From an uncultured Alphaproteobacteria bacterium (GTDB taxonomy: Bacteria > Pseudomonadota > Alphaproteobacteria > RF32 > CAG-239), in assembly GCA_944390035.1 (NCBI GenBank), contig CALXOP010000113.1, forward strand, positions 1-51,216: a DNA stretch of 51,216 bases. Direction: 5' to 3'. Shown here in pieces: positions 3,363 to 32,586 of the stretch. Numbering within the stretch: the stretch's first letter is position 1; each line of letters opens with the position of its first letter. The position numbers and the translations under genes are program-made. The notes under the pieces were generated by a model that saw nothing but the letters and a program-made list of their open reading frames with translations, did not search any database and had not been told where the DNA came from.

Positions 3363-3394
3363 AAAAAAAAAGAGGACCAAAGGTCCTCTTTTTT
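3363..3394. terminator. Bidirectional intrinsic terminator between convergent genes
   Basis: An A9 run, then the stem AGAGGACC / GGTCCTCT with loop AAA, then a T-run. It sits between the stop of 2644..3357 (+) and the stop of virB11 (-). Confidence 0.75.
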
Positions 3395-4361
3395 ATGTTA
3401 CTTCGGTTACGGCACGGAGGTTGCCGTCACGGTTGATTTGCACTACTCTTAATTTGCGGTGCATTTCTTTAATGGTTTTTTCGCGGTCAATTGTCGGATA
3501 GCTGTGCAAAATACGGTCAACAAAGGCTTCATACGCGGCCTCTGAGCTCTCAGCGTGGATGGTTGCCAGGCAGTTATCGTGTCCGGACCCCATCAGCTCC
3601 CACAAAGCGCCGGCATTGTTAGTTGAAATCTCACCGCCGATAATGGCATCAGGCGTGAAACGCACTACCAAGTCAATGATTTTTGAATAGTCAAATTCAT
3701 TGGTTTGTTCGGTACGTGACATTACAATATGGACACGATTGGGATGCGGAACAATTAGTTCTCGCGTATCTTCAATGGTGATGATTCTTTTGTGAATATC
3801 CAAAATTTTTAGAAGATTGTTCAAAAAAGTTGTTTTACCGGTAGCGGTTGCACCGGATACCAAAATATGGTCACCGCGTTTGATACTTAACAGCAATCGT
3901 TCATAAGGGTCTTCCGGGTCTTGAATATCTTTCAGAGGATTAATTTTATGCAGGCTTTCACCTTGCTTTAAGCCGTAATCTTGCAGACCAAAGGCAACAT
4001 CATCGCTATGGACACGAATTGTTAAGGCGACGCCACCGGTGAGGTCATCTTGGTCATACATTACGTTGCGCCCGCAAATGGCTGAAAAACGGTGATCTCC
4101 CGGAATTGTGGCATAAACAACCGGCGTGCCTTGTACCGGATCAAACGGTAGTTCATAGGTGTTGGCAATAATATAGAGTAAATCCGTCAGGTATTCTTTG
4201 GTTAATTTTTCGTCTTTGTACATTACCCAAGGATAGGCTCTTTTGCCCCTGAGGCGCAGCCAAACCTGTCCGGAGCGGTTAATTGCCACTTCTTCTATGT
4301 TTTCTTGATTATACCAGTATGCCAAAGGGCGTAAAACTGACTCTAAAACTTTAAAACTCAT
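3393..4361 (-). CDS. virB11: Type IV secretion ATPase VirB11
   Basis: 322 aa. Walker A SGATATGKTTFLN, IEDTRE (Asp box), GGEI and ATIHA (His box) occur in the usual VirB11/GspE-superfamily order. GGGAG Shine-Dalgarno (SD) sequence upstream. It is the last gene of the virB-like operon. Confidence 0.9.
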   Translation of the reverse strand: MSFKVLESVLRPLAYWYNQENIEEVAINRSGQVWLRLRGKRAYPWVMYKDEKLTKEYLTDLLYIIANTYELPFDPVQGTPVVYATIPGDHRFSAICGRNVMYDQDDLTGGVALTIRVHSDDVAFGLQDYGLKQGESLHKINPLKDIQDPEDPYERLLLSIKRGDHILVSGATATGKTTFLNNLLKILDIHKRIITIEDTRELIVPHPNRVHIVMSRTEQTNEFDYSKIIDLVVRFTPDAIIGGEISTNNAGALWELMGSGHDNCLATIHAESSEAAYEAFVDRILHSYPTIDREKTIKEMHRKLRVVQINRDGNLRAVTEVT

Positions 4362-4372
4362 CTTCTTACTCC

Positions 4373-7300
4373 CTAAAACAGTTGCGGAACACTGCTATCC
4401 GTATTTTGCGTACTGCTGCTGGTGGCCGCGCCCGGCGTGCTTGAAGTTGCAAACGACGGTGGTGGCGGCGGTGTGGCGCCGGTAGAGGTATTTGAAATCA
4501 GGGCCGGCGGATTGTTGCTCTGCTTGTTGGTGGTTGCACCTTTGGTATCATCAATCAAAGCCGGCGTGCCACCTTTGGCCTCAACATCTATGGCTTGGGA
4601 TTCATAGATAACGTTGCCGGTACCGGTCGGAGAGGCTTCGGTCTTGCCTAAGCTCCGACGGTTCTTTTCGAGCTCACGTTTGCCGGTGACAACCGGGTCA
4701 TCAATAAAGACGTCTTTCTTACCCATGCCTCCCAATTCTTTCGGATTACGATCTCTGGTTCGCATCCACAAATCTACGTTCGGATAAACAATAATACGCG
4801 TACCGGCCGGAACATAGGTCAATGGGCGAATATTGGTTTTATCCGACAGGATTTGCTCAAATACTTGATTCATTTGGTTCAAGAAATTTTGGCGTGCATC
4901 ATTGGCGGCTTGTTGTTTCGGGGTTTCATTAACACCGCTGCTCTCATTATCATCATCTGCCATAATATATGAGGTATAGCTGGTGAGTGCCGTGGTCATA
5001 ATCGGCAAAGTATATTTCTTAAACAACTGCTGGTCTAAGTAACCAAGAGCACCACCGCGACCTTGGGCGTCGCCGGTAATTCCGCTGAAGACAAATAGCG
5101 AACCGTCCGGACGAATTAGTCTTTCCCAAGTAATCTGTACTTTAGCCGACTGCGATGTGGTTTCGGTCGTTCCCGTTAAGCTGCCGAGTGTGCCCATAAT
5201 TCGGCTACCTGCCGGAATTATGATGTTTCGACCTTCTTCGGCATAGACATTACGTTCAACAAAAGCGGTTACCGGTGTTGGGTTATTGCTGTCAATGGAG
5301 CGAGCAATAACGGCCGGTATCGGTTTATCGGCAAATATCATCTCACTCAAGTCAACCCGCCATGATGAAATGGCTTTTTTGATTCCTTGTTCATCCCAGT
5401 CTTTTTGCATACCGTCAAACGTATCCGGGCTAATATTGCTGCTGATTTTTCCGACTTGCATATTGCTCCGGCGTTCTTGTTGTGCAGCATCTAAGGCCAT
5501 AGCTCTTTGCGGGTCATATCTTTCACCCGGACCAAAACCGCCACCCGGACCTAGGTTGCCTCCAGGACCCGTGCCGGTACCATAAGCGCCACCGCGACCA
5601 AAGGTGCCGGCAGGAATAAACATATCGCCGGTGGAAGGTTTCGCTGTTTCTTCAATTCCGATTAATGCGCCGTCATCATCAATGACCAGACCATCCGGCA
5701 TACGATGTCCGACGACTTTTCCTTCCTTATTAACAACGCTGCCGTCTTCCATAATATCCCCTAAATATTCACCGTCTGGCGTTAGAGCAATCCCTAAAGA
5801 GCGGCGATATTTTTCGGTCATTTTCTCTTCTTCCGGTGAGAGGCCGATTTCGGGTATTTCGCCTGGACGATTGTACCAATCTGGTCTCTCTGTTGGTGAT
5901 TTTGGTGCAATGATAGAACCTATTGTGTTTCCATTAGCGTCTAGTATGGTTCCGTTTTCACCCAATTTGCCAATTATTTTTCCCGTATTGTCAACAACAC
6001 TACCGTCAGGCAAAACTTTTCCTATAACGTTACCGTTGGCATCATAAGCCACTTTGGTGCTGGCCAATTCTCCGACCAAATTACCATTTTTATCAACAAC
6101 CTTGCCGTTTTGTACCATTCCGATAACTTTGCCGTTTTCATCGGTAACGGTTCCATCCGCGTTAACATAGCCAAGTAAATTGCCATTAACATCAAAAACT
6201 TTTTCTCTGGCTACAATTTCACCGTAATACTGCAACGGTTTGGCAACGGCGACAATTCGACCATTTGTATCAATAATACTGCCATTTTTGGTGATTGTTC
6301 CCAGGATTGTATTATTAATGTCTCTTAGCTCGCCTTTTAGATTCAGTTCGCCTAAGATGCGGTTAGAATCATCTCGGATGTAAAAGTCCCGATTGCCACG
6401 GCCTTTTACTTCATCATTTTTATCAATCAAAAATCCTCGGCTTAAACGACCCAAATTTTGATTTACAAAAGATAAGACCGTTCCGTCTTTTTGGATAACG
6501 CCGATGACTTCGTAATCATTATCATAAATATAAAAATCATAAAGTGCATAACCGATTTTGCGGTTGTCGTTAATGACATTTCCTTCAAAGTCAACCTGAC
6601 CGATGGTGTTGCCTTGCGCGTCTAAGACTTTGCCTTCTTGGGTGATGCGTCCGATATATTTGTTGGCCAGGCTGAATGCATAACGATATTTAAAGAGATG
6701 TCCGATGGGAGCTCCGGTTTTGGAATTAACATTGCCGTTTGCTTGGGCATAGCCGATAAATTGGTTCTCCGAATTAACGATTTGACCGTCTAAAACGCTT
6801 CGACCCAAAAGAACCCCGTTAAAACTCATAACCGGATAATATTCAATGGTGTGTGCCAAAGAAACACCGTCATCACTTTTGAGAAAGCCTCGTTTATCAA
6901 TACAACCCAAAACATTATTATTGTAATTCAAAACTTGACCGTTGCTTGAAACCGTACCAATGATGTTGCCGTTATAATCAATGACTGCAGTCGAATTTAC
7001 GCTGTAGCCGATATATGTTCCGTTTTCGGAGACGACTTGTCCGTTTAACAAAGGGCGCCCCATAACGGTTTCTCGATAGTTGCGGACTTCTCCGCGAGAC
7101 GTAATAACACCCAAAAACGAACATTTATCATCAATAACCGTGGCATAATCTATCGCTCCACCAATGGCAGATCCCGTGTTATCTACCAAAATTGATTCGG
7201 CTGTGATTTTGCCAAGATTAGCTCGTCCAAAGTCTGTGGCTATTCCCAAATTATTAACATAACCACCTAACCGACCGTTAAACAACAGAGCCAGTTGCGC

Positions 7301-8989
7301 TGAGCTGCCTCGCCCTAATTGCGGCATCATATTAACCGAAGCGTTATCTGTGGCCGCAATAACCGAACCATCTGGAATATATTTGCCCAAAATGCTCCCG
7401 TCTGTCTTTTGTACGAGATTGCGATTGTTAAGCAGGCCAATCGAATTGCCTTCTGAATTTACAAAGTAGCCATTATCGATATTTTTGCCGATGATTAAAT
7501 TGCGCTCATCAACATTATAGCCTGATTGGGTTAATTTTCCTAAGGCCCGGACATTGTTGTTGGTTAATTGTCCATTGGGCATAATTTGCGCAATTGGGGT
7601 GCCCGTAATATTGTAAATTCCGGATAAAGGCAAGCCGCGTCCCGAAGGTTTGCCATCGGCTGAGAAGAGGTAACCAAACGGAGACATAAATTTTTTCTCT
7701 TCACCGTCCATTACGGCTCCACTAATGCCAACCAGTCCCAAAACTTGATTGTTGGAATTAATGGCTAACAAGTTCCGCATGGTGGCGCCAATGGCTCGGC
7801 CGGTATTTTCATAAGCCATGTTATCCATAATATAGCCGGCAGGCGTGCCCTCCATGGTGATAATTGAGCCATTTTTCAGGGCATGGGCTCTTAGCGTACC
7901 TCGATAATCAAAAACCGGACCGGCATTGATAATGCGACCAATCAAAGTTCCGTCTGCCGACAATACAGCCCCGCGCGGACCGACTTGTCCGACTTCATCT
8001 TTACCTTTGCGAATTTTGCCTTGCGGAACAACGCGTCCTAAATATTTGCCGTTTAAGTCTGTGGCCGTTGCTGAAAAATCAACCACAGAACCAATAATTT
8101 CTCCTTGCAGATTGGCAATTGTTTCGTCGGCTTGAACATGTCCTATAATCATGTTTTTGTCAATGACTTCACCATTGTATGTAACAAAACCGAGGTATTT
8201 GCCGGAATTATGTACAGCATAGCCTGAACGAACAATACTGCCGATAATTTGATTGTCGTTATTATAAACAAAACCGTTGGCCTTTACATAGCCAATCGTT
8301 ATGGCATCAAAATTGGTGACACTGCCGCCGGGGGCAACACTTCCGATAAACTCGCCACTCAGAGATACAACCATTTTAGAGGAAATGAGACGTCCGTCCA
8401 AAATATATTCTTGGCCAACCTTACGATAGGCATAACCATCAGGAGAAATAAAGCCGATTGCCTGTCCTTGCAAGTTGGTATATAAACCATCACCGGTTAG
8501 ACGTCCTACCGTTTTGCCATCGTCAGAATAAACCAATCCCGGAAAAAGAACCGAACCAACTACATTAAAGAAATCATCCAAAACCAATCCGTTAGGCAGT
8601 ACTTTGGCGATGATTTTACCGGAAGGTAAGCGAACGGAGCCATCGTTATTTACTTTGCCCAAAGGTTTGTTATCATTGCCGATGGCAATTCCTTGAGGGA
8701 CGACACCACCGATAATTTCCCCGTCAAAATTTAGAATTAAGCTGTCGGCGGTTACATTGCCGATTAGTTGATTGTCAAAGCTCACAACCTTACCGTCGGG
8801 TATGACTTTTCCGATTAAGTCACCGTTAAAGTCAACCGCCGTGATTTCCTGAGCTTGGGCATTAACGCAAAAAAGCAACATTCCAAACAGAATATTGACA
8901 AATTTCAGCGCTTTGACGCAACATTTTTTGTTTGTGCTTGCCCCTATCAACTCAGTTCCTCCGGTTCTTTGCAACTTCCTGCAATGCAT
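4373..8989 (-). CDS. virB10: Giant VirB10/TrbI-family protein (~1538 aa): N-terminal TM, ~1100-aa repeat region, Gly/Pro linker, VirB10 C-terminal domain, 125-aa Pro/Ser/Thr tail
   Basis: The C-terminal block (nt ~4760-5375) reads ISSWRVDLSEMIFADKPIPAV...ERNVYAEEGRNIIIPAGSRIMG...ITWERLIRPDGS...GALGYLDQQLFKKY...RPLTYVPAGTRIIVYPNVDLW, the TrbI/VirB10 barrel pattern. The N-terminal hydrophobic segment is FVNILFGMLLFCV. The listed start 8998 is TTG; the first ATG is at 8989. Confidence 0.85.
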   Translation of the reverse strand: MHCRKLQRTGGTELIGASTNKKCCVKALKFVNILFGMLLFCVNAQAQEITAVDFNGDLIGKVIPDGKVVSFDNQLIGNVTADSLILNFDGEIIGGVVPQGIAIGNDNKPLGKVNNDGSVRLPSGKIIAKVLPNGLVLDDFFNVVGSVLFPGLVYSDDGKTVGRLTGDGLYTNLQGQAIGFISPDGYAYRKVGQEYILDGRLISSKMVVSLSGEFIGSVAPGGSVTNFDAITIGYVKANGFVYNNDNQIIGSIVRSGYAVHNSGKYLGFVTYNGEVIDKNMIIGHVQADETIANLQGEIIGSVVDFSATATDLNGKYLGRVVPQGKIRKGKDEVGQVGPRGAVLSADGTLIGRIINAGPVFDYRGTLRAHALKNGSIITMEGTPAGYIMDNMAYENTGRAIGATMRNLLAINSNNQVLGLVGISGAVMDGEEKKFMSPFGYLFSADGKPSGRGLPLSGIYNITGTPIAQIMPNGQLTNNNVRALGKLTQSGYNVDERNLIIGKNIDNGYFVNSEGNSIGLLNNRNLVQKTDGSILGKYIPDGSVIAATDNASVNMMPQLGRGSSAQLALLFNGRLGGYVNNLGIATDFGRANLGKITAESILVDNTGSAIGGAIDYATVIDDKCSFLGVITSRGEVRNYRETVMGRPLLNGQVVSENGTYIGYSVNSTAVIDYNGNIIGTVSSNGQVLNYNNNVLGCIDKRGFLKSDDGVSLAHTIEYYPVMSFNGVLLGRSVLDGQIVNSENQFIGYAQANGNVNSKTGAPIGHLFKYRYAFSLANKYIGRITQEGKVLDAQGNTIGQVDFEGNVINDNRKIGYALYDFYIYDNDYEVIGVIQKDGTVLSFVNQNLGRLSRGFLIDKNDEVKGRGNRDFYIRDDSNRILGELNLKGELRDINNTILGTITKNGSIIDTNGRIVAVAKPLQYYGEIVAREKVFDVNGNLLGYVNADGTVTDENGKVIGMVQNGKVVDKNGNLVGELASTKVAYDANGNVIGKVLPDGSVVDNTGKIIGKLGENGTILDANGNTIGSIIAPKSPTERPDWYNRPGEIPEIGLSPEEEKMTEKYRRSLGIALTPDGEYLGDIMEDGSVVNKEGKVVGHRMPDGLVIDDDGALIGIEETAKPSTGDMFIPAGTFGRGGAYGTGTGPGGNLGPGGGFGPGERYDPQRAMALDAAQQERRSNMQVGKISSNISPDTFDGMQKDWDEQGIKKAISSWRVDLSEMIFADKPIPAVIARSIDSNNPTPVTAFVERNVYAEEGRNIIIPAGSRIMGTLGSLTGTTETTSQSAKVQITWERLIRPDGSLFVFSGITGDAQGRGGALGYLDQQLFKKYTLPIMTTALTSYTSYIMADDDNESSGVNETPKQQAANDARQNFLNQMNQVFEQILSDKTNIRPLTYVPAGTRIIVYPNVDLWMRTRDRNPKELGGMGKKDVFIDDPVVTGKRELEKNRRSLGKTEASPTGTGNVIYESQAIDVEAKGGTPALIDDTKGATTNKQSNNPPALISNTSTGATPPPPPSFATSSTPGAATSSSTQNTDSSVPQLF
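5620..8850 (-). repeat. Coding repeat region of virB10 (degenerate ~17-20-aa G-x-x-I-G-x-V-x-x-D/N-G-x-V units)
   Basis: The translation shows continuous recurrence of [DN]G.[VI].....G..[IL]G.V throughout. The units are most regular just upstream of the Gly/Pro linker (..VFDVNGNLLGYVNADGTVTDENGKVIGMV..YDANGNVIGKVLPDGSVVDNTGKIIGKL..). Confidence 0.8.
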
Positions 8990-11900
8990 AACCTGCAACC
9001 TTCTTATCTAAATTTACGTAAGAACCGTTATTTTTAAGATAACCGACATTTTTGCCTTCACTGTCTTCAACAACGCCTTCCGCATTGAGGCGGCCGACAT
9101 AGTTGCCGTCATTTCCTAAAATTGTGGCTCCTATCTTGTATATTTTTCCAATAATACTATCATTATTGTCAATGGCCAAATCACCCGAAATGGCTCGACC
9201 AATCAGACTACCTTCTTTGTTTCTGATTTTACCATCAAAATTAACATAGCCTACAACTTTATCTGAGTTATCAATAACAATATCACCGTGGACAACTTCT
9301 CCGATTAATTTTCCAGCAGCACTAATGACATTGCCGTCAGATAAGACACGACCAATGACTATATTTTCTCTGTCGATGACTTGTCCGTTCGGTAAAACTG
9401 CCCCTATGGTGTTACCGCCAAAATCAATTACCGTGCCGCGACGCAGCAGACTAAGATTTTTGTCAGTAGAACCGCCGGGAAGAACTGCCGTTATCACTTC
9501 ATTTTTCAAATCTATTACGTCACCGACCGAGTTGACGCGACCTTTATAGTTGCCCCAAATATCAACCACAATATTTTCAGGAATAACTTCGCCGATGAGC
9601 TTTCCTTTCAAATCTATCACTTTTCCGTCAGAAGTTGTAGTTCCGACCCTCGTGCCTTCCATACTGATAACCGTGCCGTCGGTTGTGGCATAGCCCAAAA
9701 ATGACCCGTCATAGCCAATGGCACTTCCTCTGGAAATAACACCGCCGCGATAAACGCCTTTGCTGTCAATAAAGTTTCCTTTGGCATCTATTCGGCCTAA
9801 ATTTTCACCAAAACGAGTGATAACTTGTCCGTCATGCGAGACTTGTCCAATCGTCTTTCCTTCAAAATCTGCCACAAAACCTTTTTTGACGGTGTTGCCG
9901 ATGAGAGAATTATAAAAGTTTAGGCCATCGCCGTGGAGCTTTCCGATTACGTTGCCTTTAGAATCGTAAACCTCACCACTTGGGAAAAGGCGGCCCTTGA
10001 AATTTCCTTCGGGTGAGATAATTGTTGATTTTTCATCCATCAAAACGCCCAAGATTTCGTTTTGGTCGTTGGCAACCAAATCATTGGCATAAAGTTTGGC
10101 ATCAGGTTGGCCACTAATGGCGACACGTCCGTTCGGGGCTACCAGATTTAGGAAATTACCGTGCAAATCATAGGCATTTGTTTTTTCCAGAACTCGACCG
10201 ATATAGGCCCCGTCTTTGTTAAAGACATCGCCATAGAGGCCAACGCAGCCAACTGGTTGTTGAGAAAGTGCTATGACCAAGCCATCGGCCGAAACTTGTC
10301 CCAAATATTCTCCATCATAAGACAGAGCAACGCCGTTACGAACCACACTGCCGATAACTTCACCTTTTTCGCTCAGAACCGTACCGTCGGGGTTAACACA
10401 GCCCACATAGACCCCTTCAGAAGAGCGAACAATTCCGTCTGTGCCGACATCTCCGATATAAGTGCAATTATTGTCAAACACTTTGCCGGTGCGGATGACT
10501 TCGCCGACATAGTTGTTTTCTGCATCAACAATTACACCATCAGGCATGGGTTTGAGTTTTGTTTCCGTATTGCCTTTTTTTATCTTGCCGTCCGAATCCA
10601 AATAACCGATATTTTTGCAACCATAGCCCACAACCAGTCCGCCTCGGATTAATTTGGCAACAACCTCCGAACCGGACGGATCGCGTACCAAACCGTTTGA
10701 CAGTACACGACCTACCGTTTTGTTGTTTTGAACAACCGTACCGTCATTGTTTAATTTTCCCAAAACCGTTCCTTTGGGAGTTATCGGTATCATACGAGTT
10801 TGAACCAAAGCACCCAAAGTTTTGTCTTGCGAGCTTACGATATTGCCATTGGCATCGACATAACCGATTTCATTGCCTTTGAGGTCAAATACTTTGCCGT
10901 TGGCATCAACATAGCCAACCACCTTACCATCTTTATCCAAAACCAGATTGACCATCTCGCCGGCTTTGCCGATAACATTACCTTCCAAGTCAACTAAAGT
11001 GCCATCATCTAGCATTTTGCCTATGATGTTGCCATTAAAATCAACAACATTACCGTTTTCATCAATGTAGCCTATCAAATTGCCGTCTTTATCATAAGCC
11101 AAACGCCTTTGCGCGCCGATATTCATATCGGCAACTTTTCCTATGACGTTACCGTTATTGTCCACAACCGTGCCGTCAGGCAAGACGCGCCCGATAATAT
11201 TACCGTTGGCGTCACGGACATTGCCGTCTTCATCAACATAGCCGATGACATTGCCATCCTTATCATAAACCAGACGTCTTCCCGGAACATTGGCAACTTG
11301 TCCAATCACATTGCCGTTGGCATCCACAATCGTCCCATCGGGCAAAACCTTACCAATGACATTGCCATTAAAGTCAACCACATTTCCGTTCTCATCAACG
11401 TAGCCGATAACATTGCCATTTTTATCATATGCTAACCGTCTTTGCGGGATAGTCGTTGACTTGCCGATAACATTGCCGTTTTCATCCATAACATTGCCGG
11501 CAGCATCAACTTTGCCGATAACATTGCCGTTGGAATCGATAACATTGCCGTTAGAATCTACAAAACCTATAACTTTACCGTTTTTGTCATGCGCTAATCT
11601 TACAGAACCGCCGGCGTTTCCCAAAACATTTTTGCCGACAACCTTGCCGTTTTCATCTACATAGCCGACAACATTGCCGTTTTTATCTACCACCGAGCCA
11701 TCGGGCATCACAACACCCAAAACATTGCCGTTTTCATCAACGGCAACGCGGCCTTGCTTGCTGACACGGCCTATGACGTTACCATTGGCATCAACCGCTT
11801 CTCCGTTGGCATTTAATCTACCGGTCACATTACCGTTTTTATCGACGACCGTGCCGTCGGGCATAACCCGGCCGATGATGTTGCCATTTTTATCATACAC

Positions 11901-14512: not shown

Positions 14513-14532
14513 TTCTTAATACCTTAATCTAC

Positions 14533-15264: not shown

Positions 15265-15272
15265 TGGTTTTC

Positions 15273-15461
15273 CTAAATTGTTTCAACAAACCAATCGGGA
15301 AGTGTTTTCGGCAACTCGACCTGCATGCAAGCGCAAGGTGATAACTTCAACTCATCAACACCTTTACCGACGCCGACCGGCTCTGCCTCGTAATATGACC
15401 CAAATATGCCGCAAGATGACAGCAGCATTAGAACAAAAAGCATAATTATCTTTTTTGACAT
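15273..15461 (-). CDS. Small lipoprotein, VirB7-like by size and position
   Basis: 62 aa. Signal peptide with lipobox (LLSSC). It lies between two virB8 paralogs, directly upstream of virB8-virB9. I see no sequence signature beyond this. Confidence 0.5.
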   Translation of the reverse strand: MSKKIIMLFVLMLLSSCGIFGSYYEAEPVGVGKGVDELKLSPCACMQVELPKTLPDWFVETI

Positions 15462-15511
15462 GTCTTATTTCCTTGTCTATATCGTTCGAGTACTCTTATA
15501 GATATTACGAA

Positions 15512-20962: not shown

Positions 20963-20975
20963 TCTTTTTCTCCTT

Positions 20976-25362: not shown

Positions 25363-25442
25363 CATAACCTCCATACGACAAGTCACCGTATATTATCTAT
25401 AATACCAAATTTTCGGCCATTGATAAATGGCTATTATGCTCA

Positions 25443-27875
25443 TTACGCAATATTTAAATATTTTGTAACAAAGTTTTCTTCGCCATATTCCTTTATTAGC
25501 TCTTCTACCAACAAAACGTTCTTGCGGCCTGAGTTGTAGAGTTTCAAATATGGCCCTAAACCACTCAAATCTACATCCAAAATAACCGATTCACCCGTGG
25601 CCGGACGAGAAAGCAATATGGCATAAGGAAAATCGCGGTAGGTTTTACCAAAGATAAAATCGACCTCACGCTGGGTTAAATTCCAGTTGGCATAATCTTC
25701 CGGCATGGCTTGCGGGTTACGGAAGAAAATTACCGTTTGGCATTGACCGCGAATAACCTCGCCGACCCCTAATTTATCGATAATATTGGGTTGTTGGAAG
25801 GCGCATAAGTAAGCCTGACGTTTTTTACGGCCTTCTTGAAGACCGATAATAAAGTAATCTCTAAACATCGGGTGCTTTAACATCGGCGCCGTTTCATCAA
25901 TCATAATTAAGGACGGAACACCCGTGTCTCCGGTTTCGGACATAATTCGGTGCATAATATAGCTGATAACGGCCGGAGCCAAAGTTTCATCTTCAAAAAT
26001 ATGAGTAAAGTCAAATGCCATAAATCTTTTGCTGGCCAAGTCCAAGCTATCGTTTTCGGCATTGAAAATATTACCGTATTGATCGGGGTTGACCCAACGA
26101 AACAGTTCACGACGCATATTACCGGTCGGTGAAAAACAGCTCTTATAAAGATTTTTTAAAATCCGTTCCTCAGGTTTCAAATAGTCAAACGCCGTGGTGA
26201 CCGCGCGACCTATCTCTTTTTCGGACAAAGCATCATCAACCATGGTAATGGATTTGAGCCATCTTCTTAAAAAGGCACGGTTATTGGGCGTATTTTTGCA
26301 GTCAAACGGGTTGAGGGACACGTTCTTTTCATCGCCGTCAAAACCGACATATGCCCCTTGTATGGCGCGGGTGAAGATTTCTGCACCGCGGTGACGGTCA
26401 AAGAAGAATACCTTCAAATCATGGTGACGCATGGCTTGTCCGGCCAAAAATGTCAGCAAAGTGGTTTTACCTTGTCCGGTCGGACCAATAATACAACAGT
26501 GCGCAACGGCTGAATCTTCAGTTGAAACATGGAATTGAAAACGGTAAGCCGAGCCGGAGGTCGTCCGGAAAATGGAAATTGCGCCCGGACCCCAGTCACT
26601 TTTGGGCAAGCCTTCGGAAGGCTTATCAAAAGATATGGCCATGGCAACCACTCTTGATAAGTAGCGATAGGTTCTGGGATAAGCATCATAAGTCGGAAAT
26701 TGGTTGAAAAAGGCCGCTTGAGCCACCCAACCTTCTCGAACCGGCGTTACACTGAACAAACGACAAATTCTTTGAACTTCACTCTCTCCGAAATTGATTT
26801 CTTCCATGCTGTCGCCACGGAGAATAATATCCATTGCATATTCGGTCAGAGATTGATAATCGGCATCACTATCTTCAATTGCGGAGAGTGCCTCGGAATA
26901 TTGGCTGACAACATCGGGTGAAAAGCTCGTTACCGTTGCCATACGTTGTTGTTGCATTAATAATGCACGTGCCTGAGGTTTAAACATCGGTTTAATGTTG
27001 TGCAACAGTGTTAATTCGCAATCAATAGACAAGAGTGAGGCTATCATGCTCTCATCCATATAGTCGCCGGAGGTGCGAATGCCCATGACAATCTCATAGA
27101 GTTCTTTGTCGCCGGAGAAAAATTTGATAATGCCGTTTTCGCCGGTAAAATGAATATGGTCCGCAGTCAAGAGCTCATTGAGTTGATAACCGGTCGCCTC
27201 TCTGACTTTCGGCAGCGGTTTAGAAACCGGACTACAAATTTTGGAAAAGACATACAGCGGACTGTCCGTTGCCGCGCTGTCTTCCGTCTCAAACATAGGC
27301 TTAACACCATAGTCATTTAAGGTTGCCAAGAGTGATTGTGAGGCATAGTTTAGGTCTTTTAGCGCATCGGGACGGTCGGCAACCGACAAAATGATATAGT
27401 GTTTATTGCTATAAACCCTATCCAGATTATTGCGCCAGGTCATCGAAATTTGTTCCAGCAGTTGGTTACCGAAATCTCCACTGTCTTCTTCCATCGGAAT
27501 ACGTTCACGCAATGTCAAAACTCGGCAAATAATCTGCATATCCGACATCGAATCTATCCATGACTTGCGCGCTTCCATCATGGCCATATTCTTTTCTTCG
27601 GTCACAAAAGATAAATCTACCCCTTCAACCCGGAAAACACGCGCAAAAGAGCCATTATAGCAACGGATGGTGATGCCGTCTGCCATTAACTTATTGAAAG
27701 GCAAAAAGTCAACCACGCGGGACTCTTGCGGTTGCGGCAAGATGATGCGACCTAATTTGGTCGCCCATAATCCGGCAAAGGCCGCTGCAGACACAAATCC
27801 AATAGCGGCAACAATTACTTCTATGTTGGACAATCCTTGAACAAAGATTGTGAAAAAATCAAAATCAGGGCGCAA
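25443..27875 (-). CDS. virB4: Type IV secretion ATPase VirB4/TrbE
   Basis: 810 aa. Walker A IIGPTGQGKTTLLTFL. Walker B-like SLIMIDETAPML. The typical C-terminal ..QCQTVIFFRNPQA.. is present. The apparent TTG start overlaps the end of virB3. Confidence 0.9.
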   Translation of the reverse strand: MRPDFDFFTIFVQGLSNIEVIVAAIGFVSAAAFAGLWATKLGRIILPQPQESRVVDFLPFNKLMADGITIRCYNGSFARVFRVEGVDLSFVTEEKNMAMMEARKSWIDSMSDMQIICRVLTLRERIPMEEDSGDFGNQLLEQISMTWRNNLDRVYSNKHYIILSVADRPDALKDLNYASQSLLATLNDYGVKPMFETEDSAATDSPLYVFSKICSPVSKPLPKVREATGYQLNELLTADHIHFTGENGIIKFFSGDKELYEIVMGIRTSGDYMDESMIASLLSIDCELTLLHNIKPMFKPQARALLMQQQRMATVTSFSPDVVSQYSEALSAIEDSDADYQSLTEYAMDIILRGDSMEEINFGESEVQRICRLFSVTPVREGWVAQAAFFNQFPTYDAYPRTYRYLSRVVAMAISFDKPSEGLPKSDWGPGAISIFRTTSGSAYRFQFHVSTEDSAVAHCCIIGPTGQGKTTLLTFLAGQAMRHHDLKVFFFDRHRGAEIFTRAIQGAYVGFDGDEKNVSLNPFDCKNTPNNRAFLRRWLKSITMVDDALSEKEIGRAVTTAFDYLKPEERILKNLYKSCFSPTGNMRRELFRWVNPDQYGNIFNAENDSLDLASKRFMAFDFTHIFEDETLAPAVISYIMHRIMSETGDTGVPSLIMIDETAPMLKHPMFRDYFIIGLQEGRKKRQAYLCAFQQPNIIDKLGVGEVIRGQCQTVIFFRNPQAMPEDYANWNLTQREVDFIFGKTYRDFPYAILLSRPATGESVILDVDLSGLGPYLKLYNSGRKNVLLVEELIKEYGEENFVTKYLNIA

Positions 27876-28155
27876 ATTTATTCCCCTTTTCTTTATAAAG
27901 ATTGTTACTTATTCGACGGCATTGTCCGAAGGCTTGTATCATCGAAGAGATATGCGGTTCTTTATTGCCTAAAAAAATCATAAATATATGGCCCAAGGCA
28001 ATAGTTACCATAAAAATCAACGGATTGGACTTGAATACTCCCATGCACATAAACATTAACGGGAATTGTACACCAAGGTTTAACAGGGTCGGCAAAAACG
28101 GCCCCCACAAAATTTTGGGAGGATTGGCTACCGCTTTTAATATCATTTCTCTCAT
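27865..28155 (-). CDS. virB3: VirB3-family small membrane protein
   Basis: 96 aa. ..PPKILWGPFLPTLLNLGVQFPLMFMCMGV.. followed by a second hydrophobic helix. It lies immediately upstream of virB4 and overlaps it. Confidence 0.8.
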   Translation of the reverse strand: MREMILKAVANPPKILWGPFLPTLLNLGVQFPLMFMCMGVFKSNPLIFMVTIALGHIFMIFLGNKEPHISSMIQAFGQCRRISNNLYKEKGNKFAP

Positions 28156-28176
28156 GGCCGTTCCCTCTTTGTTTGG

Positions 28177-28204
28177 ATTCTAGCTCATTTTTATTTTGTT
28201 GCAA
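28177..28204 (-). promoter_or_regulatory. Candidate sigma70 promoter for virB3-virB4...
   Basis: The minus strand reads TTGCAA - 16 nt - TAGAAT, about 20 nt upstream of the AGAGGGA SD sequence and the virB3 ATG. Confidence 0.4.
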
Positions 28205-28314
28205 CATTGAGAGGAAAATTAACAACAAACATTTTCCAGAATCCGGTGCAAACTTTTCTTATTTTTAGTGTAGCTTTTTTTTATGAATATTCTATTAACA
28301 GCCATAGCGGACAA

Positions 28315-28344
28315 TAAAAAAAGGCACCATAAGGTGCCTTTTTT
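28315..28344 (-). terminator. Intrinsic terminator after the 1128-aa VirB2-domain gene
   Basis: Stem AGGCACC / GGTGCCT with loop ATAA. On the minus strand it is followed by a T8 run, beginning 4 nt after the stop at 28348. Confidence 0.7.
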
Positions 28345-28347
28345 ATT

Positions 28348-31300
28348 TTATTTATTATACTTATTATAAAAGTCTTTTCCTTTTGGAAACTCTGTCATTT
28401 TTTGATTTACTTCCGCTTTTGTCTTTGCATTTGCTAACAGAGCTTTACAATCAGATAAACATTGCTCTTTTCTTTTGGCTCCTTGACATTGGGTTTGACA
28501 GCGCGCATTTCTTTGCTGATCGGTTATCTCTGCTGCTGCTTCTGCAGTTGCTTTTTCTTGAGCTCTTTTTTCGTAATTACATTTTGCACAAGCTTCTTTT
28601 GGTTCTCCCGTATCAAAGCATGTTTGCTTAAATTTTGCATCATTACATTGATTTATTTCTTTTGCTTCTGTATCTATCGCTTGAATACAGCTATTGATTT
28701 CTGCAATAGTAGATTTTCCAACACAGGCCTCACATTTACTTTTAAGAGCAATATAATCTCCAGTATATCTAGAACATTGCTGTTTTAGCGTATTCTTTTG
28801 CTCTTCACTTATTGTTTGAGTTTTCTCCTCTGCTTGTTTCTTAGATTCCTTTTCATCCTTTTCTTCCGCCGGTTTTTCTTCCGTTGGCTTTTCTTCAGTC
28901 TTTGTTCCTTTCAAAGCATTTGTCATACTCTCGGCTGTCGGACGATTGTACTTATTTACCAACTCTGTACTGACTTTATTGCCTTTAGAATCGTAGGTTA
29001 TCTTATTGCCGTCAGCGTCGGTAACGACCTTTGAACCATCTTTGTTTTTGACAATGGTAGAGCCATCTTTGCCCGTAATTGTGGTCGTACCATCCGTACT
29101 GATTACAGTAGTCGTTCCGGTAGATTCATTAATGGTCTTGATACTGCCGTCTCCTAAGTTCTGGATAGTCGTATCTCCACTCTTTGTCTCACTCTTGACA
29201 TAGCCTGCCGTTTTTTGGAAAGCCTCTTGCTCGGCTTGAGCTTTCTCTTCACGTTTGGTTTCCTCACTTCTGAAGTCAAATGCACCATTCTTTTGTCCTT
29301 GGGATACCGTATTCACCCCTTCGGTGACTGCCGTACCGACACCAAAGCCTACACCTAAGATGGCGCCCAGTGCACCATCACCACCGATGGATTGACCTTC
29401 TTTTGCTGCGGTTGCCGCTGTATTAACAGACTTGGCAGCATTAGAGGTGATATTACCAACTTTGTTAATACCTGACAGGATTGTCGCACCACCGCCGGCA
29501 CCATCGTTTTCCAGCCATTTATTAACGCCAGTCTTTTCACTTTCCAAAAATTCTTTATTAACCTCCAGCTGTTCTTTTTCTACATCACTACAGTTACCTG
29601 CATCGCATTTCTTCTGCAGAGCATCCGTTTTTTCTTGAACTTTCGCCACTGCTTCTCTTGCAGCATTGGTTGAGCCTGCATCTTTAATGTTGCTGGAGAG
29701 CTCACCTGCGTTGGTTGCTATATTATTGGCCAAGGTTTGACCTGAGCTAACAATACTTCCGGTCGCATTGGCAACAGCTCCCGCGGCATTGATAATACCA
29801 TCTAATCCACCGCCACCGGCTTTAATCTGTGCTTTCATATTAGAAACCGTGTTAGCAACATTAGTGACGGTTGTTTTGGCTGCCTTATACATATCACTGG
29901 CATTTCGAACAGCACTTATACCTGCTTGAATTGAGCCTTTTAAATCTTTGAGTGACCATTTTTCTTTTTTATAGCTTTGATCAATTCCTGTTACCGTGAC
30001 TTCCGGACAAAGATAGCTGCCATCCGCTGCCTTCGCTGCTCCTTCGCCACTTCCGCCGGCACCACAATTATAAACCTGCCCGTCACTGCCTTGAATATCC
30101 GTAAATCCGGCCGGCAAATATTTACCAAAACGTAAAGTACCATCCTTGCCGGTTGTGAAATATTCAATAAACGGCGTCATCATTGACAGCAAGAATAAGC
30201 CTATACCAATATTAGCTAAGTGCTTAAAGCTCATCTTACCGAAAATGGCTGCATAAGCCAAGGCAATCATACCAAAACCTGATATAATATAGGCAATAAC
30301 TCGCAAGTCAGCCAAAGTAATCATTGCCTTACATGCAATCAACAAGAAAATGTTTCCTTCAGCCTCACTACACATCTTTGGTGCTGCAGATTGAGCAGAT
30401 GCAATATCTTTCTTGGCATCTGCCAGCTCTTGGTCGGCACTTGCGGCTTCTGCCAAAGCATTTTCTTGCGCTGCTTCTGCTGCTATTTCAGCATCTCTTT
30501 CATCCATATATTCTTGTGCAGCAACGTCTTCATCCTCTGCATTAAAAGCTGCTGCTTTTTGGTTGGCATTATCTAAGGCACTTTGTGCACTGGAGGCTGA
30601 AGCTCGAGCCGCTGCCAAATCTGCCAAATCATCATCATCGCATTTGCCTTTGGCACATTTTTCTTCTAATTTTTCAATTTCTTTGTTTGCTTTCTTTAAG
30701 TCTTTTTCAGCTTGTTTTTGTTCTTTTTCTATGGCCTTTTTCTGTTCTTTTTGCTCTTTTTCGAGGGCCTTTTGCTGTTCTTTTACCGCATCGTCCATGG
30801 CATCAATTTGTTTTTCGGCGGTCTTATCCAGCTCTTTGTTAGCCTTTTTTACATCTTTTTCAACGTCTTTTTGTGCATCTTCAGCTTTTTCAAGGTTCTC
30901 TTTAGCTGCCTTTAAAGCCTCATTAGCGGCCTTCATTTCTTCCGGAGTTGTGGCATTCTTTAATTTTTCTTGTGCTGCTGTATAGTCTTGACGGGCAATA
31001 TTGGTCTGCGCCTGCATATTAGCAACACGCTCATTATTTTGAGCCTTTTGTTCTGCTAATTTTTTCTGAATTTCCGCAACATTGTTATCTCTTACTGCTT
31101 GTGTATTTTGTTGCTGGTTTATTCTATTTTGCTGAGCATCATAAATTTCTTGTGCTGCCTCATTTCCTCCAGTGGCATTATATCTTGCTTGGTTTTTGGC
31201 TATAGTGTTTTGCGTCTCCTTGTCTAAGGTTTGCCAACCACCAACTGCTTCTTCCTCGGGAGCTTCTTCTTCAATAACTTGAGACATGTCTATTTGAGCT

Positions 31301-31734
31301 AGCTGGTACGAAGATGAACTTGCTGCACTGTTAGAATTATTTGCGGCTGGAGTTGAGGATGTCGCCGGGGTTGAGGATGCCGCCGGAGTTGCACTACTTT
31401 CATTAACTGTTACTTTAGGGCCACTATTTTTCTTTTGTTCATATTCTTTCTTCTGTTTTTCCGCATATTGCTTTAATGCTACAGTTTGATCTGCCGCATT
31501 ATTCAACTGCTCTACCAAGGCATTGGCTTCTTCTTCCGAACAATTAGGGTCTGCATCACAATCTGCTAATTTTTGTGACAACTTATCCCATTCTTGGTTG
31601 TATTGCCCTGCCATTGCATTGGTTATATCATAATTTCTTACAATCTGAGCATAAACGTCTGACGATTGCATCAAAACACAAACAGACACGATTAACAGGC
31701 TTATGCTTTTCAATAGATTAGATATGTACTTCAT
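28348..31734 (-). CDS. Giant protein (1128 aa) with an internal VirB2/TrbC-like hydrophobic hairpin flanked by ~450-aa and ~560-aa hydrophilic arms
   Basis: Signal peptide (..QSSDVYAQ). At nt ~30150-30355, IAYIISGFGMIALAYAAIFGKMSFKHLANIGIGLFLLSMMTPFIEYF aligns with ILGGFGLVGIAYSAILGKVKWSWFAGLAVGLAILAAAGSIVEY (32248..32586) and AVSGFGVVAIAVGAFFGTMNWKWLVAIIIGLFVIASTAGIINY (31759..32208). The N-arm is a Lys/Glu/Ala/Gln coiled coil. The C-arm is Gly/Ala/Thr-rich and ends in a Cys-rich tail. GGGAGG SD sequence upstream. Confidence 0.75.
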   Translation of the reverse strand: MKYISNLLKSISLLIVSVCVLMQSSDVYAQIVRNYDITNAMAGQYNQEWDKLSQKLADCDADPNCSEEEANALVEQLNNAADQTVALKQYAEKQKKEYEQKKNSGPKVTVNESSATPAASSTPATSSTPAANNSNSAASSSSYQLAQIDMSQVIEEEAPEEEAVGGWQTLDKETQNTIAKNQARYNATGGNEAAQEIYDAQQNRINQQQNTQAVRDNNVAEIQKKLAEQKAQNNERVANMQAQTNIARQDYTAAQEKLKNATTPEEMKAANEALKAAKENLEKAEDAQKDVEKDVKKANKELDKTAEKQIDAMDDAVKEQQKALEKEQKEQKKAIEKEQKQAEKDLKKANKEIEKLEEKCAKGKCDDDDLADLAAARASASSAQSALDNANQKAAAFNAEDEDVAAQEYMDERDAEIAAEAAQENALAEAASADQELADAKKDIASAQSAAPKMCSEAEGNIFLLIACKAMITLADLRVIAYIISGFGMIALAYAAIFGKMSFKHLANIGIGLFLLSMMTPFIEYFTTGKDGTLRFGKYLPAGFTDIQGSDGQVYNCGAGGSGEGAAKAADGSYLCPEVTVTGIDQSYKKEKWSLKDLKGSIQAGISAVRNASDMYKAAKTTVTNVANTVSNMKAQIKAGGGGLDGIINAAGAVANATGSIVSSGQTLANNIATNAGELSSNIKDAGSTNAAREAVAKVQEKTDALQKKCDAGNCSDVEKEQLEVNKEFLESEKTGVNKWLENDGAGGGATILSGINKVGNITSNAAKSVNTAATAAKEGQSIGGDGALGAILGVGFGVGTAVTEGVNTVSQGQKNGAFDFRSEETKREEKAQAEQEAFQKTAGYVKSETKSGDTTIQNLGDGSIKTINESTGTTTVISTDGTTTITGKDGSTIVKNKDGSKVVTDADGNKITYDSKGNKVSTELVNKYNRPTAESMTNALKGTKTEEKPTEEKPAEEKDEKESKKQAEEKTQTISEEQKNTLKQQCSRYTGDYIALKSKCEACVGKSTIAEINSCIQAIDTEAKEINQCNDAKFKQTCFDTGEPKEACAKCNYEKRAQEKATAEAAAEITDQQRNARCQTQCQGAKRKEQCLSDCKALLANAKTKAEVNQKMTEFPKGKDFYNKYNK

Positions 31735-31758
31735 ATTAGCCTCCCTTGTCTGCGTATT

Positions 31759-32208
31759 TTAGTTCGCCGTTACCAGGCTGTCGGTTATCATTTGATCCGT
31801 GATAACTTCACTGTCAACCATATAGTTAATTATTCCGGCGGTTGATGCAATCACAAATAATCCGATAATAATTGCAACCAACCATTTCCAGTTCATCGTT
31901 CCAAAAAAAGCGCCAACGGCTATGGCGACAACACCAAAACCGGATACGGCATATATGATTTCACGCATACCGCCAAAAATCTCTATACCTTTATTGGTTA
32001 AGTCGCTGAACAAAACGCCGTCTTCTGCGTAAGAGTTTGTTGCAAATAAAATTGAAGAAACAGCAAACATCATTACTGAAAGAACAAGAAATTTCTTTAA
32101 TTTTACGCACAACATCTTCTTATCCTTTTTTTGCAAACATTGTTTTATGTTGGTAAATAAGGCAACAAAAGGGAAGGCGTGTGGTTGCTTTTGATTTAAG
32201 TTTTCCAT
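31759..32208 (-). CDS. virB2: VirB2/TrbC-like pilin-family protein with long leader (149 aa)
   Basis: A strong SD sequence (GGGGAGGG) lies 4 nt before the ATG at 32208. The leader is long, with a hydrophobic core FLVLSVMMFAVSSILFATNSYA. Two C-terminal hydrophobic helices have the same pattern as the neighbouring paralog. Confidence 0.7.
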   Translation of the reverse strand: MENLNQKQPHAFPFVALFTNIKQCLQKKDKKMLCVKLKKFLVLSVMMFAVSSILFATNSYAEDGVLFSDLTNKGIEIFGGMREIIYAVSGFGVVAIAVGAFFGTMNWKWLVAIIIGLFVIASTAGIINYMVDSEVITDQMITDSLVTAN

Positions 32209-32247
32209 AATACCCTCCCCTTTGTTTGCTATGCAGTTACCTGCTGA

Positions 32248-32586
32248 TTAAATATTACCAAATGTGGTGGTTAAGCCTGATTCGGTAGAACCGGTTGCAT
32301 ATTCAACGATTGAACCTGCTGCTGCCAAAATTGCCAAACCTACGGCCAAGCCTGCAAACCAAGACCATTTTACTTTACCTAAAATAGCTGAGTAAGCAAT
32401 ACCTACCAAACCGAAACCACCTAAAATAAAGGTAATGGTTTTAACACTATCAAATACGTTACGTGTTTTCGTTTGCGCCGTATTCATCAAGCTGGCGCCA
32501 TCCGCCCAAGCTTCTCCACAAAAACCCATTGCTACAATCAAGGTCAAGCAGCAAAGAGTTAAAATGTTTTTCTTTATGAATTTCAT
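32248..32586 (-). CDS. virB2: VirB2/TrbC-like pilin-family protein (112 aa)
   Basis: Signal peptide ending ..EAWA. Two hydrophobic helices are separated by the short basic loop GKVKWSW. It is the first gene of the virB-like locus. AAGGAG SD sequence upstream. Confidence 0.75.
   Translation of the reverse strand: MKFIKKNILTLCCLTLIVAMGFCGEAWADGASLMNTAQTKTRNVFDSVKTITFILGGFGLVGIAYSAILGKVKWSWFAGLAVGLAILAAAGSIVEYATGSTESGLTTTFGNI

Follow-up and report, generated by a model that had tools for sequence, protein, structure and literature searches.

Type IV secretion systems (T4SSs) without the coupling protein VirD4 have several precedents, comprising adhesive pili (Trw), two-step exporters (Ptl and Brucella), and a DNA importer (ComB) (PMC12857230). 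The role proposed for Trw is the variable display of an adhesive pilus rather than translocation (PMC12857230), and an affinity of the rickettsial VirB7 and VirB9 to ComB proteins has already been recorded for the rvh system (PMC2653234). The T4SS described here is encoded on contig CALXOP010000113.1 of assembly GCA_944390035.1; the entire stretch analyzed (hereafter, the window) comprises 51,216 nt, and the gene array under study is located at positions 3393–32586. The window contains most of a locus of ~70 kb on the chromosome, which encodes a secretion system of the VirB type (type IVA, MPF-T-like); the core of this system is complete once the DNA just past the left edge of the window is counted (three copies of VirB2, VirB3, VirB4, VirB7, two copies of VirB8, VirB9 with a SPOR domain, VirB10, VirB11, and three to four VirB6 proteins). 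The system is, on balance, probably a vertically inherited, non-conjugative contact or adhesion organelle, possibly also exporting Sec-delivered proteins.

Proteins in the window were identified by listing and translating open reading frames (ORFs), followed by profile searches with Pfam and NCBIfam. All cross-species figures are based on tblastn searches of the window proteins against 80 species-level loci, which were fetched from the 277 GTDB representatives (one genome per species) that carry a relative of VirB4. The T4SS genes form a single array on the minus strand, running from 32586 down to 3393 in the order VirB2 (three copies), VirB3, VirB4, four proteins with signal peptides, VirB8a, VirB7, VirB8b, VirB9-SPOR, a 1314-aa repeat protein, VirB10, and VirB11. 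Two gene boundaries are ATGA overlaps (23131–23134 and 22349–22352), and the gaps are mostly 8–40 nt. The core features of the VirB-type T4SS superfamily were tested and are present, and the system is a member of this superfamily; its core proteins all score far below the NCBIfam equivalog cutoffs. The giant ORFs are genuine because the same DNA is present in independent metagenome assemblies (L083, 99.99% identity over 14.3 kb; L087, 100% over 12.5 kb), long tandem DNA repeats were not found with Tandem Repeats Finder, which detected only short imperfect ones, and most of the 80 species possess intact orthologous ORFs of similar size. The same observations rule out that these ORFs are artifacts of repeat collapse, a possibility that the initial annotation of the sequence had raised against itself. 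That annotation had described a highly derived VirB-type T4SS interleaved with giant proteins, encoded by tightly packed genes on one strand, with a virB7-like gene between two virB8 copies and four secreted proteins after virB4. The order is borne out by the ORF listing, the family matches, the pilin core of VirB2c, and the match of VirB3 to a Microvirga homolog, and the other features are also found. Its statement that several canonical parts are missing was overstated, as three to four VirB6 proteins, one of them with hydrolase domains, are encoded just past the contig end.

The host is an uncultured gut alphaproteobacterium of the CAG:495 / Candidatus Scatocola / “Azospirillum sp. 51_20” group, which we take to be the order RF32 in the GTDB taxonomy; NCBI places Candidatus Scatocola in Rhodospirillaceae incertae sedis. 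The 277 carriers include “Proteobacteria bacterium CAG:495”, “Candidatus Scatocola faecipullorum/faecigallinarum”, “Azospirillum sp. 51_20”, and “uncultured Alphaproteobacteria” and stem from the guts of humans, primates, mice and other rodents, chickens, and ruminants. VirB4 has hundreds of relatives at 82–93% identity, on contigs of up to 582 kb. Common to the 80 loci is the order type IVb pilus operon, a protein of ~646 aa, VirB2a, VirB2b, VirB2c, VirB3, VirB4, three to six secreted proteins, a protein of 1200–1650 aa, VirB8a, VirB7, VirB8b, and VirB9. Housekeeping genes border the locus on its flanks, and neither tRNAs nor Rfam families were detected in the window. Because it is conserved throughout the lineage, flanked by housekeeping genes, and free of integrase, relaxase, and tRNA genes, the locus is a vertically inherited chromosomal trait of the whole lineage and not a mobile element. 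Whereas VirB4 is 80–97% identical across the 80 loci (median 83%), the accessory proteins p458, p261, p1537, and p751 and the giant pilin paralog VirB2c have medians of only 27–39%, a contrast in rates that would be expected of exposed or partner-contacting parts.

Outside the lineage, a HMMER scan of 1.8 billion representative proteins recovered VirB4 relatives whose identities grade from 52% over 42%, 41%, and 40% down to 35%; the few with names are uncultured Alphaproteobacteria. Two of these outgroups have their T4SS genes dispersed among housekeeping genes. One of them has virB3-virB4-virB7-virB8-virB9 with a single virB8 and no further T4SS genes nearby; the nearest outgroup (L096, 52%) has virB3-virB4 alone, a VirB11-like ATPase (61% identical) at a distance of 3 kb, and an ankyrin-repeat gene in the vicinity. 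The scattered layout of L096 recalls that of obligate intracellular Alphaproteobacteria. The closest annotated VirB4 is located on plasmid pMVF16-3 of Microvirga sp. VF16 (38.7% identity), in a canonical conjugative VirB/D4–MobA cluster that contains no homologs of the accessory proteins. This relationship, together with the split genes in some strains (e.g., VirB10 of 1107 + 692 aa in L084), might suggest that the locus is a decaying, functionless remnant of a conjugative element. Such a remnant is extremely improbable, given that all core ORFs and the Walker motifs are intact, VirB4 is well conserved over the 80 loci, and giant reading frames of 1200–2000 aa are uninterrupted in almost all species, which is incompatible with neutral decay.

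There is no indication of DNA-transfer genes in the locus. Within the window, a polytopic VirB6-like protein was not found by hydropathy analysis, and domains of VirB1, VirD4, relaxases, and integrases were not found with Pfam or NCBIfam, as had been stated in the initial annotation. Likewise, when VirD4 and MobA of Microvirga served as tblastn queries, no homolog was obtained from the related loci of more than 80 genomes, which total 1.85 Mb and together span the ~70-kb region to which this search was confined. In its parts list, the locus corresponds to a complete VirB-type machine, with a pair of ATPases, three pilins, the outer-membrane core, and multiple VirB6 proteins, but has no local genes for substrate recruitment. 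Because VirD4 and a relaxase are absent from the locus, a non-conjugative role, which had also been proposed initially, is the better reading.

Both ATPases of the machinery are readily recognized. VirB4 (810 aa; 25443–27875, minus strand) matches Pfam CagE_TrbE_VirB and TIGR00929, the latter with 362 bits against an equivalog cutoff of 643, and is similar to TrwK in PDB (E = 1e-39, 139 bits); its Walker A motif (GPTGQGKTT) is visible in the translated sequence. VirB11 (322 aa; 3393–4361, minus strand) matches TIGR02788 (E = 5.4e-43) and Pfam T2SSE. The two VirB8 paralogs, the divergent VirB8a (252 aa; 15575–16333, minus strand; Pfam VirB8, E = 2.7e-18) and the orthodox VirB8b (243 aa; 14533–15264, minus strand; E = 3.7e-21), enclose a small lipoprotein of 62 aa (15273–15461, minus strand) with the lipobox LLSSC. 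This lipoprotein is identified as VirB7 because it is homologous to a 60-aa lipoprotein that precedes virB8 in outgroup L095, with which it shares the motif PVGxG...SPCAC. An ORF of ~62 aa is present at this position in all loci that reach it, and the order virB8a-virB7-virB8b is retained in all loci that extend there. VirB8b has a median identity of 68% across species, and its best match in PDB is VirB8 of Bartonella (4mei, E = 2e-7), with a weaker match to that of Rickettsia typhi (4o3v, E = 2e-3). The single VirB8 of the outgroup is closer to VirB8b (32% identity) than to VirB8a (25%), and the duplication therefore probably arose within the present lineage, independently of rvh. VirB9 (546 aa; 12872–14512, minus strand) combines a CagX domain (E = 1.2e-11) with a C-terminal SPOR domain (E = 5.8e-6), both above the Pfam cutoffs; the matches of both VirB8 copies and of the TrbI domain of VirB10 exceed their cutoffs as well.

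The array encodes three pilins. VirB2a (112 aa; 32248–32586, minus strand; E = 1.4e-9) has a signal peptide and two hydrophobic helices, and both VirB2a and VirB2b (149 aa; 31759–32208, minus strand; E = 3.6e-7) score above the Pfam cutoff for TrbC/VirB2, with median identities of 60% and 49%, respectively. The third paralog, VirB2c (1128 aa; 28348–31734, minus strand), carries a homologous two-helix core (aa ~459–535) that is 33–37% identical to VirB2a and VirB2b (E ~1e-12), but this core is embedded between a signal peptide followed by a coiled-coil-like region of ~430 aa and a tail of ~590 aa. Conservation between species is confined to the pilin core (median identity of the entire protein, 39%), and the length of the ORF ranges from ~125 to 2058 aa across the 80 species. 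The adjacent VirB3 (96 aa; 27865–28155, minus strand) matches the annotated VirB3 of Microvirga pMVF16-3 in tblastn searches (E = 8.5e-9), always directly precedes virB4, and has a median identity of 69%. Between the genes of VirB2c and VirB3, 3 nt past the stop codon of the former and 160 nt ahead of the latter, lies a palindromic, terminator-like hairpin (28317–28344) with a perfect 12-bp stem and flanking runs of A and T, which could act as a partial terminator that sets the ratio of pilins to machinery.

Both VirB10 and its upstream neighbor are expanded by repeats. VirB10 (1541 aa; 4373–8998, minus strand) consists of a signal or anchor sequence, ~1000–1100 aa of beta-flower repeats (Pfam Bflower_2, E = 4e-61), a TrbI/VirB10 barrel at aa 1221–1411 (TrbI, E = 1.7e-33), and a Ser/Thr/Pro-rich tail. 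The preceding gene encodes a protein of 1314 aa (rep1314; 8952–12896, minus strand; likely start codon, ATG at 12875), which possesses a single N-terminal membrane anchor (transmembrane segment, aa 26–44) followed by ~1000 aa of beta-flower hairpin repeats (Bflower_2, E = 2.8e-87, in 12 stretches) and a match to DUF3659. A relative of the Tubby domain, which binds lipids, the beta-flower fold has been known as a defined fold since 2023. It is ruled out that the two genes represent a single, frameshifted gene of ~2850 aa, since they are separate in every independent assembly (1307 aa for rep1314, in six out of six, and 1538–1746 aa for VirB10). In strains with identical VirB11, VirB10 comprises either 1538 or 1739 aa, reflecting an in-frame difference of a 201-aa block; in L084, it is split into ORFs of 1107 and 692 aa. 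A megaplasmid of the gammaproteobacterium Teredinibacter purpureus (NZ_CP060093; L098:18531–24926) encodes, in a Dot/Icm-type cluster, a DotG homolog of 2131 aa annotated as “TrbI/VirB10 family”, whose repeat array is 25% identical to rep1314 over 78% of the latter (E = 7e-17). Repeat-expanded VirB10 proteins are therefore not unique to the present lineage. The Teredinibacter protein adjoins a hypothetical protein of more than 3400 aa.

The C-terminal domain of VirB10 has its nearest relative in PDB in ComB10 of Helicobacter pylori (2bhv, E = 3.5e-20), whereas matches to CagY, Xanthomonas VirB10, TraF, and TrwE are at 1e-6 or weaker; the top match in NCBIfam is also ComB10. This wide margin, the lack of VirD4 and of recognizable VirB5 or VirB1 in the region, and the precedent of ComB itself as an uptake system without VirD4 (PMC12857230) would be consistent with a machine for DNA uptake or DNA release that operates without a coupling protein. 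We nevertheless consider such a function very unlikely: VirB11 is present here but absent from ComB, a role in DNA uptake would hardly account for three paralogous pilins and ~20 kb devoted to rapidly evolving proteins of the surface type, and the similarity to ComB10 may reflect only a shared ancestry with the ComB proteins of Epsilonproteobacteria, as has been recorded for rvh.

VirB6 is multiplied rather than missing. The left end of the window is the contig end and falls inside a repeat-rich gene; the adjoining region was read from contigs with an identical VirB11 or an identical neighboring 420-aa protein and from homologous loci. Three to four large VirB6 paralogs are located 8–18 kb past virB11, outside the window, on the opposite strand and convergent with virB11. 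Past virB11 follow, in this order, three conserved small genes, the gene of an acidic repeat protein, that of a regulator with a double helix-turn-helix (HTH) motif, and the VirB6 operon, which encodes, successively, a 144-aa lipoprotein, a 281-aa protein, a 63-aa membrane protein, and proteins of 935, 438, 699, and 1247 aa. The polytopic 935-aa protein scores 27.4 bits with TrbL/VirB6, above the Pfam cutoff of 25.9; the polytopic 699-aa protein (23.5 bits) and the 1247-aa protein (24.4 bits) score slightly below it. All three have five to seven hydrophobic segments, and the 438-aa protein among them is a membrane protein with six such segments. The 1247-aa protein (VirB6-3) comprises a signal peptide, a Peptidase_M23 domain (aa 121–229), a VgrG3-like_C domain (aa 292–479), a polytopic TrbL/VirB6 region (aa ~600–850), and a hydrophilic tail. 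No SLT-type VirB1 transglycosylase was found in the region, and the periplasmic domains of VirB6-3, M23 (endopeptidase) and VgrG3-like_C (lysozyme type), are the only wall hydrolases detected; this two-domain hydrolase is a likely substitute for VirB1.

M23 and VgrG3-like_C domains are also typical of antibacterial effectors. The system could be a T4SS that delivers these domains or other cargo into neighboring bacteria upon contact, with the 144-aa lipoprotein at the head of the same operon as immunity protein. Contact between cells would suit both the densely populated gut and the type IVb pilus next to the array, and bacteria-killing T4SSs are known. Several points make such a weapon quite unlikely. 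The hydrolase domains are not free effectors but covalently attached as the N-terminal part of a polytopic VirB6, and Gram-positive T4SSs employ two-domain hydrolases (PrgK, CwlT) purely for assembly. Furthermore, VirB7 with its 62 aa has no room for an N0 domain, and no VirD4 was found in the ~70-kb region, whereas the known killing T4SSs recruit their effectors through VirD4 (PMC8740702).

The four genes between virB4 and virB8a encode accessory proteins with signal peptides, which were called by inspection of the N-termini; none of the proteins has a significant match to a Pfam family. The first, p751 (751 aa; 23131–25386, minus strand; median identity 33%), yields only coiled-coil noise in Pfam; its N- and C-terminal parts are conserved, and the middle is variable, of low complexity, and contains an internal duplication of ~100 aa. 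The next, p261 (261 aa; 22349–23134, minus strand; 30%), occupies the slot and falls into the size range of VirB5. No VirB5 family was detected by Pfam in any of 19 orthologs, a profile of the p261 family found only coiled-coil noise in PDB, and hhalign comparisons with the VirB5-slot proteins of Microvirga were negative. However, the VirB5-slot proteins of the canonical Microvirga system are equally undetectable by Pfam, and the absence of VirB5 can therefore not be concluded. The third protein, p458 (458 aa; 20976–22352, minus strand; 27%), is helical or of low complexity. A VirB6 hidden among the accessory proteins of the window was not found, as the hydropathy scan shows only the signal peptides and Pfam remained empty at E = 0.01. 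A periplasmic or extracellular location is in agreement with the signal peptides of all four proteins and with the invariant cysteines of the fourth and largest member, p1537 (1537 aa; 16349–20962, minus strand; 32%).

p1537 is present in 74 of the 80 loci, always immediately ahead of virB8a, but has no homolog among 72,556 plasmids. It possesses two conserved domains (aa 1–650 and 950–1537) with invariant Cys, Trp, and Pro residues, connected by a variable linker. Apart from coiled-coil noise (SMC4 at best, E = 1e-6), a profile search of PDB remained empty. For the C-terminal domain, AlphaFold2 (26 homologs; predicted local distance difference test [pLDDT] score, 66.6) predicts, with moderate confidence, a mixed alpha/beta core and long helices, to which Foldseek found nothing similar in PDB (lowest E = 1.7), and the model of the N-terminal domain (pLDDT, 53.7) is too poor for a structure search. 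The C-terminus (16349–16363) carries the motif P-[YF]-C-A-x-Y, with Cys at position –4, as in a CaaX box, in ~58 of 69 orthologs. A function as CaaX box was judged unlikely because N, T, or S frequently occupies the middle positions and the motif is followed by one to six extra residues in several orthologs; a role in disulfide formation or docking seems more likely.

The conserved Cys-x-x-Tyr of p1537 is one of the features that would fit an effector-translocating T4SS of the rvh, Brucella, or Legionella kind, which delivers its substrates via an unlinked VirD4 or a VirD4-independent route into eukaryotic cells. Candidate cargo would be p1537 or the acidic tandem-repeat protein of ~1000 aa, which is encoded inside the locus and lacks a signal peptide, and the bacteria would be contact-dependent symbionts or parasites of host or protist cells. 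The rvh-like arrangement virB8-virB7-virB8, the several large tandem VirB6 proteins, and the presence of the nearest VirB4 relatives in genomes with scattered T4SS islets, one of them beside an ankyrin-repeat protein, point in the same direction. Yet, effector translocation is unlikely, because no VirD4 turned up when the 70-kb locus was searched in over 80 genomes, the four proteins encoded within the operon carry Sec signal peptides, the C-terminal motif of p1537 is a poor CaaX box, and no domains resembling those of eukaryotes were found in the locus.

The contact or adhesion organelle that we favor would be a fixed structure of the cell surface and not a conjugation system. In its assembly, the hydrolase domains of VirB6-3 would cut the local cell wall in place of VirB1, and the outer-membrane complex would be secured to the opened glycan by the SPOR domain of VirB9. 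The beta-flower arrays of VirB10 and of rep1314, a paralog of the N-terminal half of VirB10 with an anchor of its own, may span or fill the periplasm or enlarge the periplasmic or outer scaffold. VirB4 and VirB11 would power the polymerization of a pilus from VirB2a and VirB2b, which VirB2c may enter as a minor pilin, with its long N- and C-terminal passengers facing outward. The four Sec-exported proteins in the VirB5/VirB6 slot might serve as adhesins of tip or stalk, as substrates of a VirD4-independent two-step export as in Ptl, or as both. The neighboring type IVb pilus would provide long-range attachment and fits an attachment-based life; candidates for the target cell are the epithelium of the host, protists of the gut, and other bacteria.

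Several points weigh against this interpretation. Both rvh and the outgroups identified by VirB4 have dispersed T4SS genes, so that virD4 could lie outside the ~70-kb locus. The nearest relative of the VirB10 C-terminal domain belongs to a DNA-uptake system, and no accessory protein could be tied to VirB5 or any adhesin fold by Pfam, PDB profiles, hhalign, or Foldseek. The outward display of the VirB2c extensions is extrapolated from known pilus structures, and the hydrolase domains of VirB6-3 could be weapons instead of assembly tools. A more far-reaching interpretation, which we regard as speculative and rather doubtful, is that of an undescribed T4SS branch with a pilin that carries a passenger of up to ~2000 aa, a VirB6 with its own wall hydrolases, and beta-flower arrays of ~1000 residues in both VirB10 and a free-standing paralog, used by an abundant uncultured gut lineage for obligate attachment to another cell and for VirD4-independent delivery of proteins into that cell.

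On the right-hand side, the array is flanked by divergent genes on the plus strand (32925–44473; NCBIfam, Pfam), namely, that of a 646-aa protein (32925–34865) and a complete type IVb pilus operon (34935–44473). The operon encodes a TcpQ-like protein, the secretin PilN, PilO, PilP, the ATPase PilQ, the platform protein PilR, a bundlin/PilS-like pilin, and a second T2SSE ATPase. The adjacency of pilus operon and T4SS is conserved in more than 50 species, and the 646-aa protein is conserved as well but belongs to no known family. Just past the pilus operon lies a compact set of three genes (45739–48627, plus strand), which encode a protein with a VWA domain, a PP2C phosphatase, and a Ser/Thr protein kinase.

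The convergent neighbors past virB11 (1–3357, plus strand) are the tail of the acidic protein (1–637), a 228-aa protein (689–1375), a 420-aa lipoprotein (1372–2634), and a 239-aa membrane protein (2638–3357). The same four genes are located between virB11 and the HTH regulator with the VirB6 genes in every related contig examined, and none of them belongs to a Pfam family. The 420-aa lipoprotein (plus strand) has the lipobox VVAC and a C-terminal stretch (…TVVFMVPRII…) that recalls the ends of secretins, without any match in Pfam or PDB. As seen from its complete gene (L083:13725–16835, minus strand), the acidic repeat protein includes 11 consecutive lysines and a ~31-aa repeat (…EGQDWEWDYEEAPAEES…) that is present seven times. 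In L091, this gene is split into ORFs of 368 and 554 aa exactly at the poly-Lys (poly-A) tract, which suggests either phase variation or a sequencing error in the homopolymer. Four independent assemblies (L091:1–390, L093:1–459, L094:1–425, and L099:1–316), with contigs of up to 371 kb, end 315–460 bp upstream of the gene of the 144-aa lipoprotein. No tRNA, rRNA, or Rfam family was found at this recurrent break, beyond which there is probably an unassembled repeat.

If the more far-reaching interpretation of an undescribed T4SS branch holds, the system would be the equivalent, in extracellular gut bacteria, of the rickettsial rvh, and its carriers would be contact-dependent symbionts or parasites of host epithelium, a protist, or a bacterium. 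The carriers are widespread in gut communities, and a 70-kb locus for secretion and pilus formation that remains intact over 80 loci is likely central to their lifestyle. It is fixed in a common uncultured gut lineage and points to a lifestyle that depends on contact, and the fast evolution of the exposed parts suggests partner-specific interactions. The locus also represents a natural experiment on the function of a VirD4-less machine, on the passenger load that VirB2 and VirB10 can carry, and on whether VirB6 can replace VirB1 in cutting the cell wall. Moreover, traits like those of rvh, i.e., the duplication of virB8 around virB7 and the multiplication of large VirB6 proteins, also arise outside obligate intracellular bacteria.

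A characterized system with the same gene content was not found in Pfam, NCBIfam, PDB, plasmid records, or the literature, in line with the initial annotation, which had recognized no described architecture. The literature on RF32, CAG-239, or CAG-495 in connection with T4SSs yielded no description of the present system, and neither the literature nor the family libraries yielded a description of a giant VirB2 fusion, a fusion of VirB6 with hydrolases, or a free-standing paralog of the VirB10 N-terminus.

Like the present locus, rvh (Gillespie et al. 2009, PMC2653234) is a chromosomal VirB-type system that a lineage of Alphaproteobacteria has fixed. Both have a duplicated virB8, with orthodox and divergent copies around virB7, several large tandem VirB6 proteins, no recognizable VirB5, and outer-membrane parts akin to the ComB proteins of Epsilonproteobacteria. 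However, rvh has duplicated virB4 and virB9 genes, a virD4 beside virB11, and a distribution over five islets, whereas virB4 and virB9 are single in the present ~70-kb region, convergent genes lie behind virB11, and the T4SS genes are gathered in two neighboring operons. Furthermore, rvh lacks the giant VirB10, the giant pilin, the beta-flower protein, and the helical secreted proteins. Of the likeness to rvh drawn in the initial annotation, the arrangement virB8-virB7-virB8 stands and is joined by the multiple large VirB6 proteins; the single virB4 and virB9, the lack of virD4 after virB11, and the apparently independent duplication of virB8 speak against a closer correspondence.

Bartonella Trw (PMC12857230) shares the lack of a coupling protein and the presence of several sequence-variable pilin copies but, with its small trwL and trwJ copies in tandem, is closely related to the system of plasmid R388. 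In the present locus, VirB4 is only distantly related to TrwK, and the relation to TrwG is likewise distant; one pilin paralog reaches up to 2058 aa, and copies of VirB5 are not recognizable. Helicobacter ComB contains the nearest solved VirB10 domain (2bhv) and likewise lacks VirD4 and recognizable VirB5 or VirB1; unlike the present locus, in which about two-thirds of the coding length are lineage-specific, it has no VirB11, and its subunits are small and canonical. Bordetella Ptl and the VirB system of Brucella also have no coupling protein and take Sec-exported proteins from the periplasm, which hypothetically applies also to the four exported proteins here; their subunits are of canonical size, and the exported toxin of Ptl is encoded beside its system. 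The antibacterial T4SS of Xanthomonadales differs by a VirB7 with a C-terminal N0 domain and by effectors recruited through VirD4, as opposed to the 62-aa VirB7 and the lack of a local VirD4.

The system with the closest annotated VirB4, that of Microvirga pMVF16-3, has the same core order (B2, B3, B4, three unassigned genes, a small lipoprotein, B8, B9, B10, B11) but differs by its MobA relaxase and VirD4, a single VirB8, a VirB10 of 590 aa, and the absence of all giant proteins. The DotG/VirB10 of Teredinibacter purpureus has a related array of beta-hairpin repeats but is part of a plasmid-borne, Dot/Icm-type (IVB) system of a gammaproteobacterium, without a separately anchored repeat paralog. 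Together with the 201-aa in-frame variation between strains, this array upholds the initial comparison of VirB10 with CagY and DotG. H. pylori Cag indeed resembles the present locus in its giant, repeat-containing VirB10 (CagY), which differs between strains by in-frame blocks, and in the many extra components among the core genes. The differences are that Cag comprises a homolog of VirD4 and a known effector, that Pfam yielded no Cag-specific families for the window proteins, that the present repeats are beta-flower hairpins unrelated to those of CagY, and that the C-terminal domain is nearer to ComB10 than to CagY. The system is thus neither rvh, Trw, ComB, or Cag nor of the Xanthomonas type but blends their traits, combining an rvh-like expansion of virB8 and VirB6 and a Trw-like multiplicity of pilins without a coupling protein with a giant, repeat-variable VirB10 like that of Cag.

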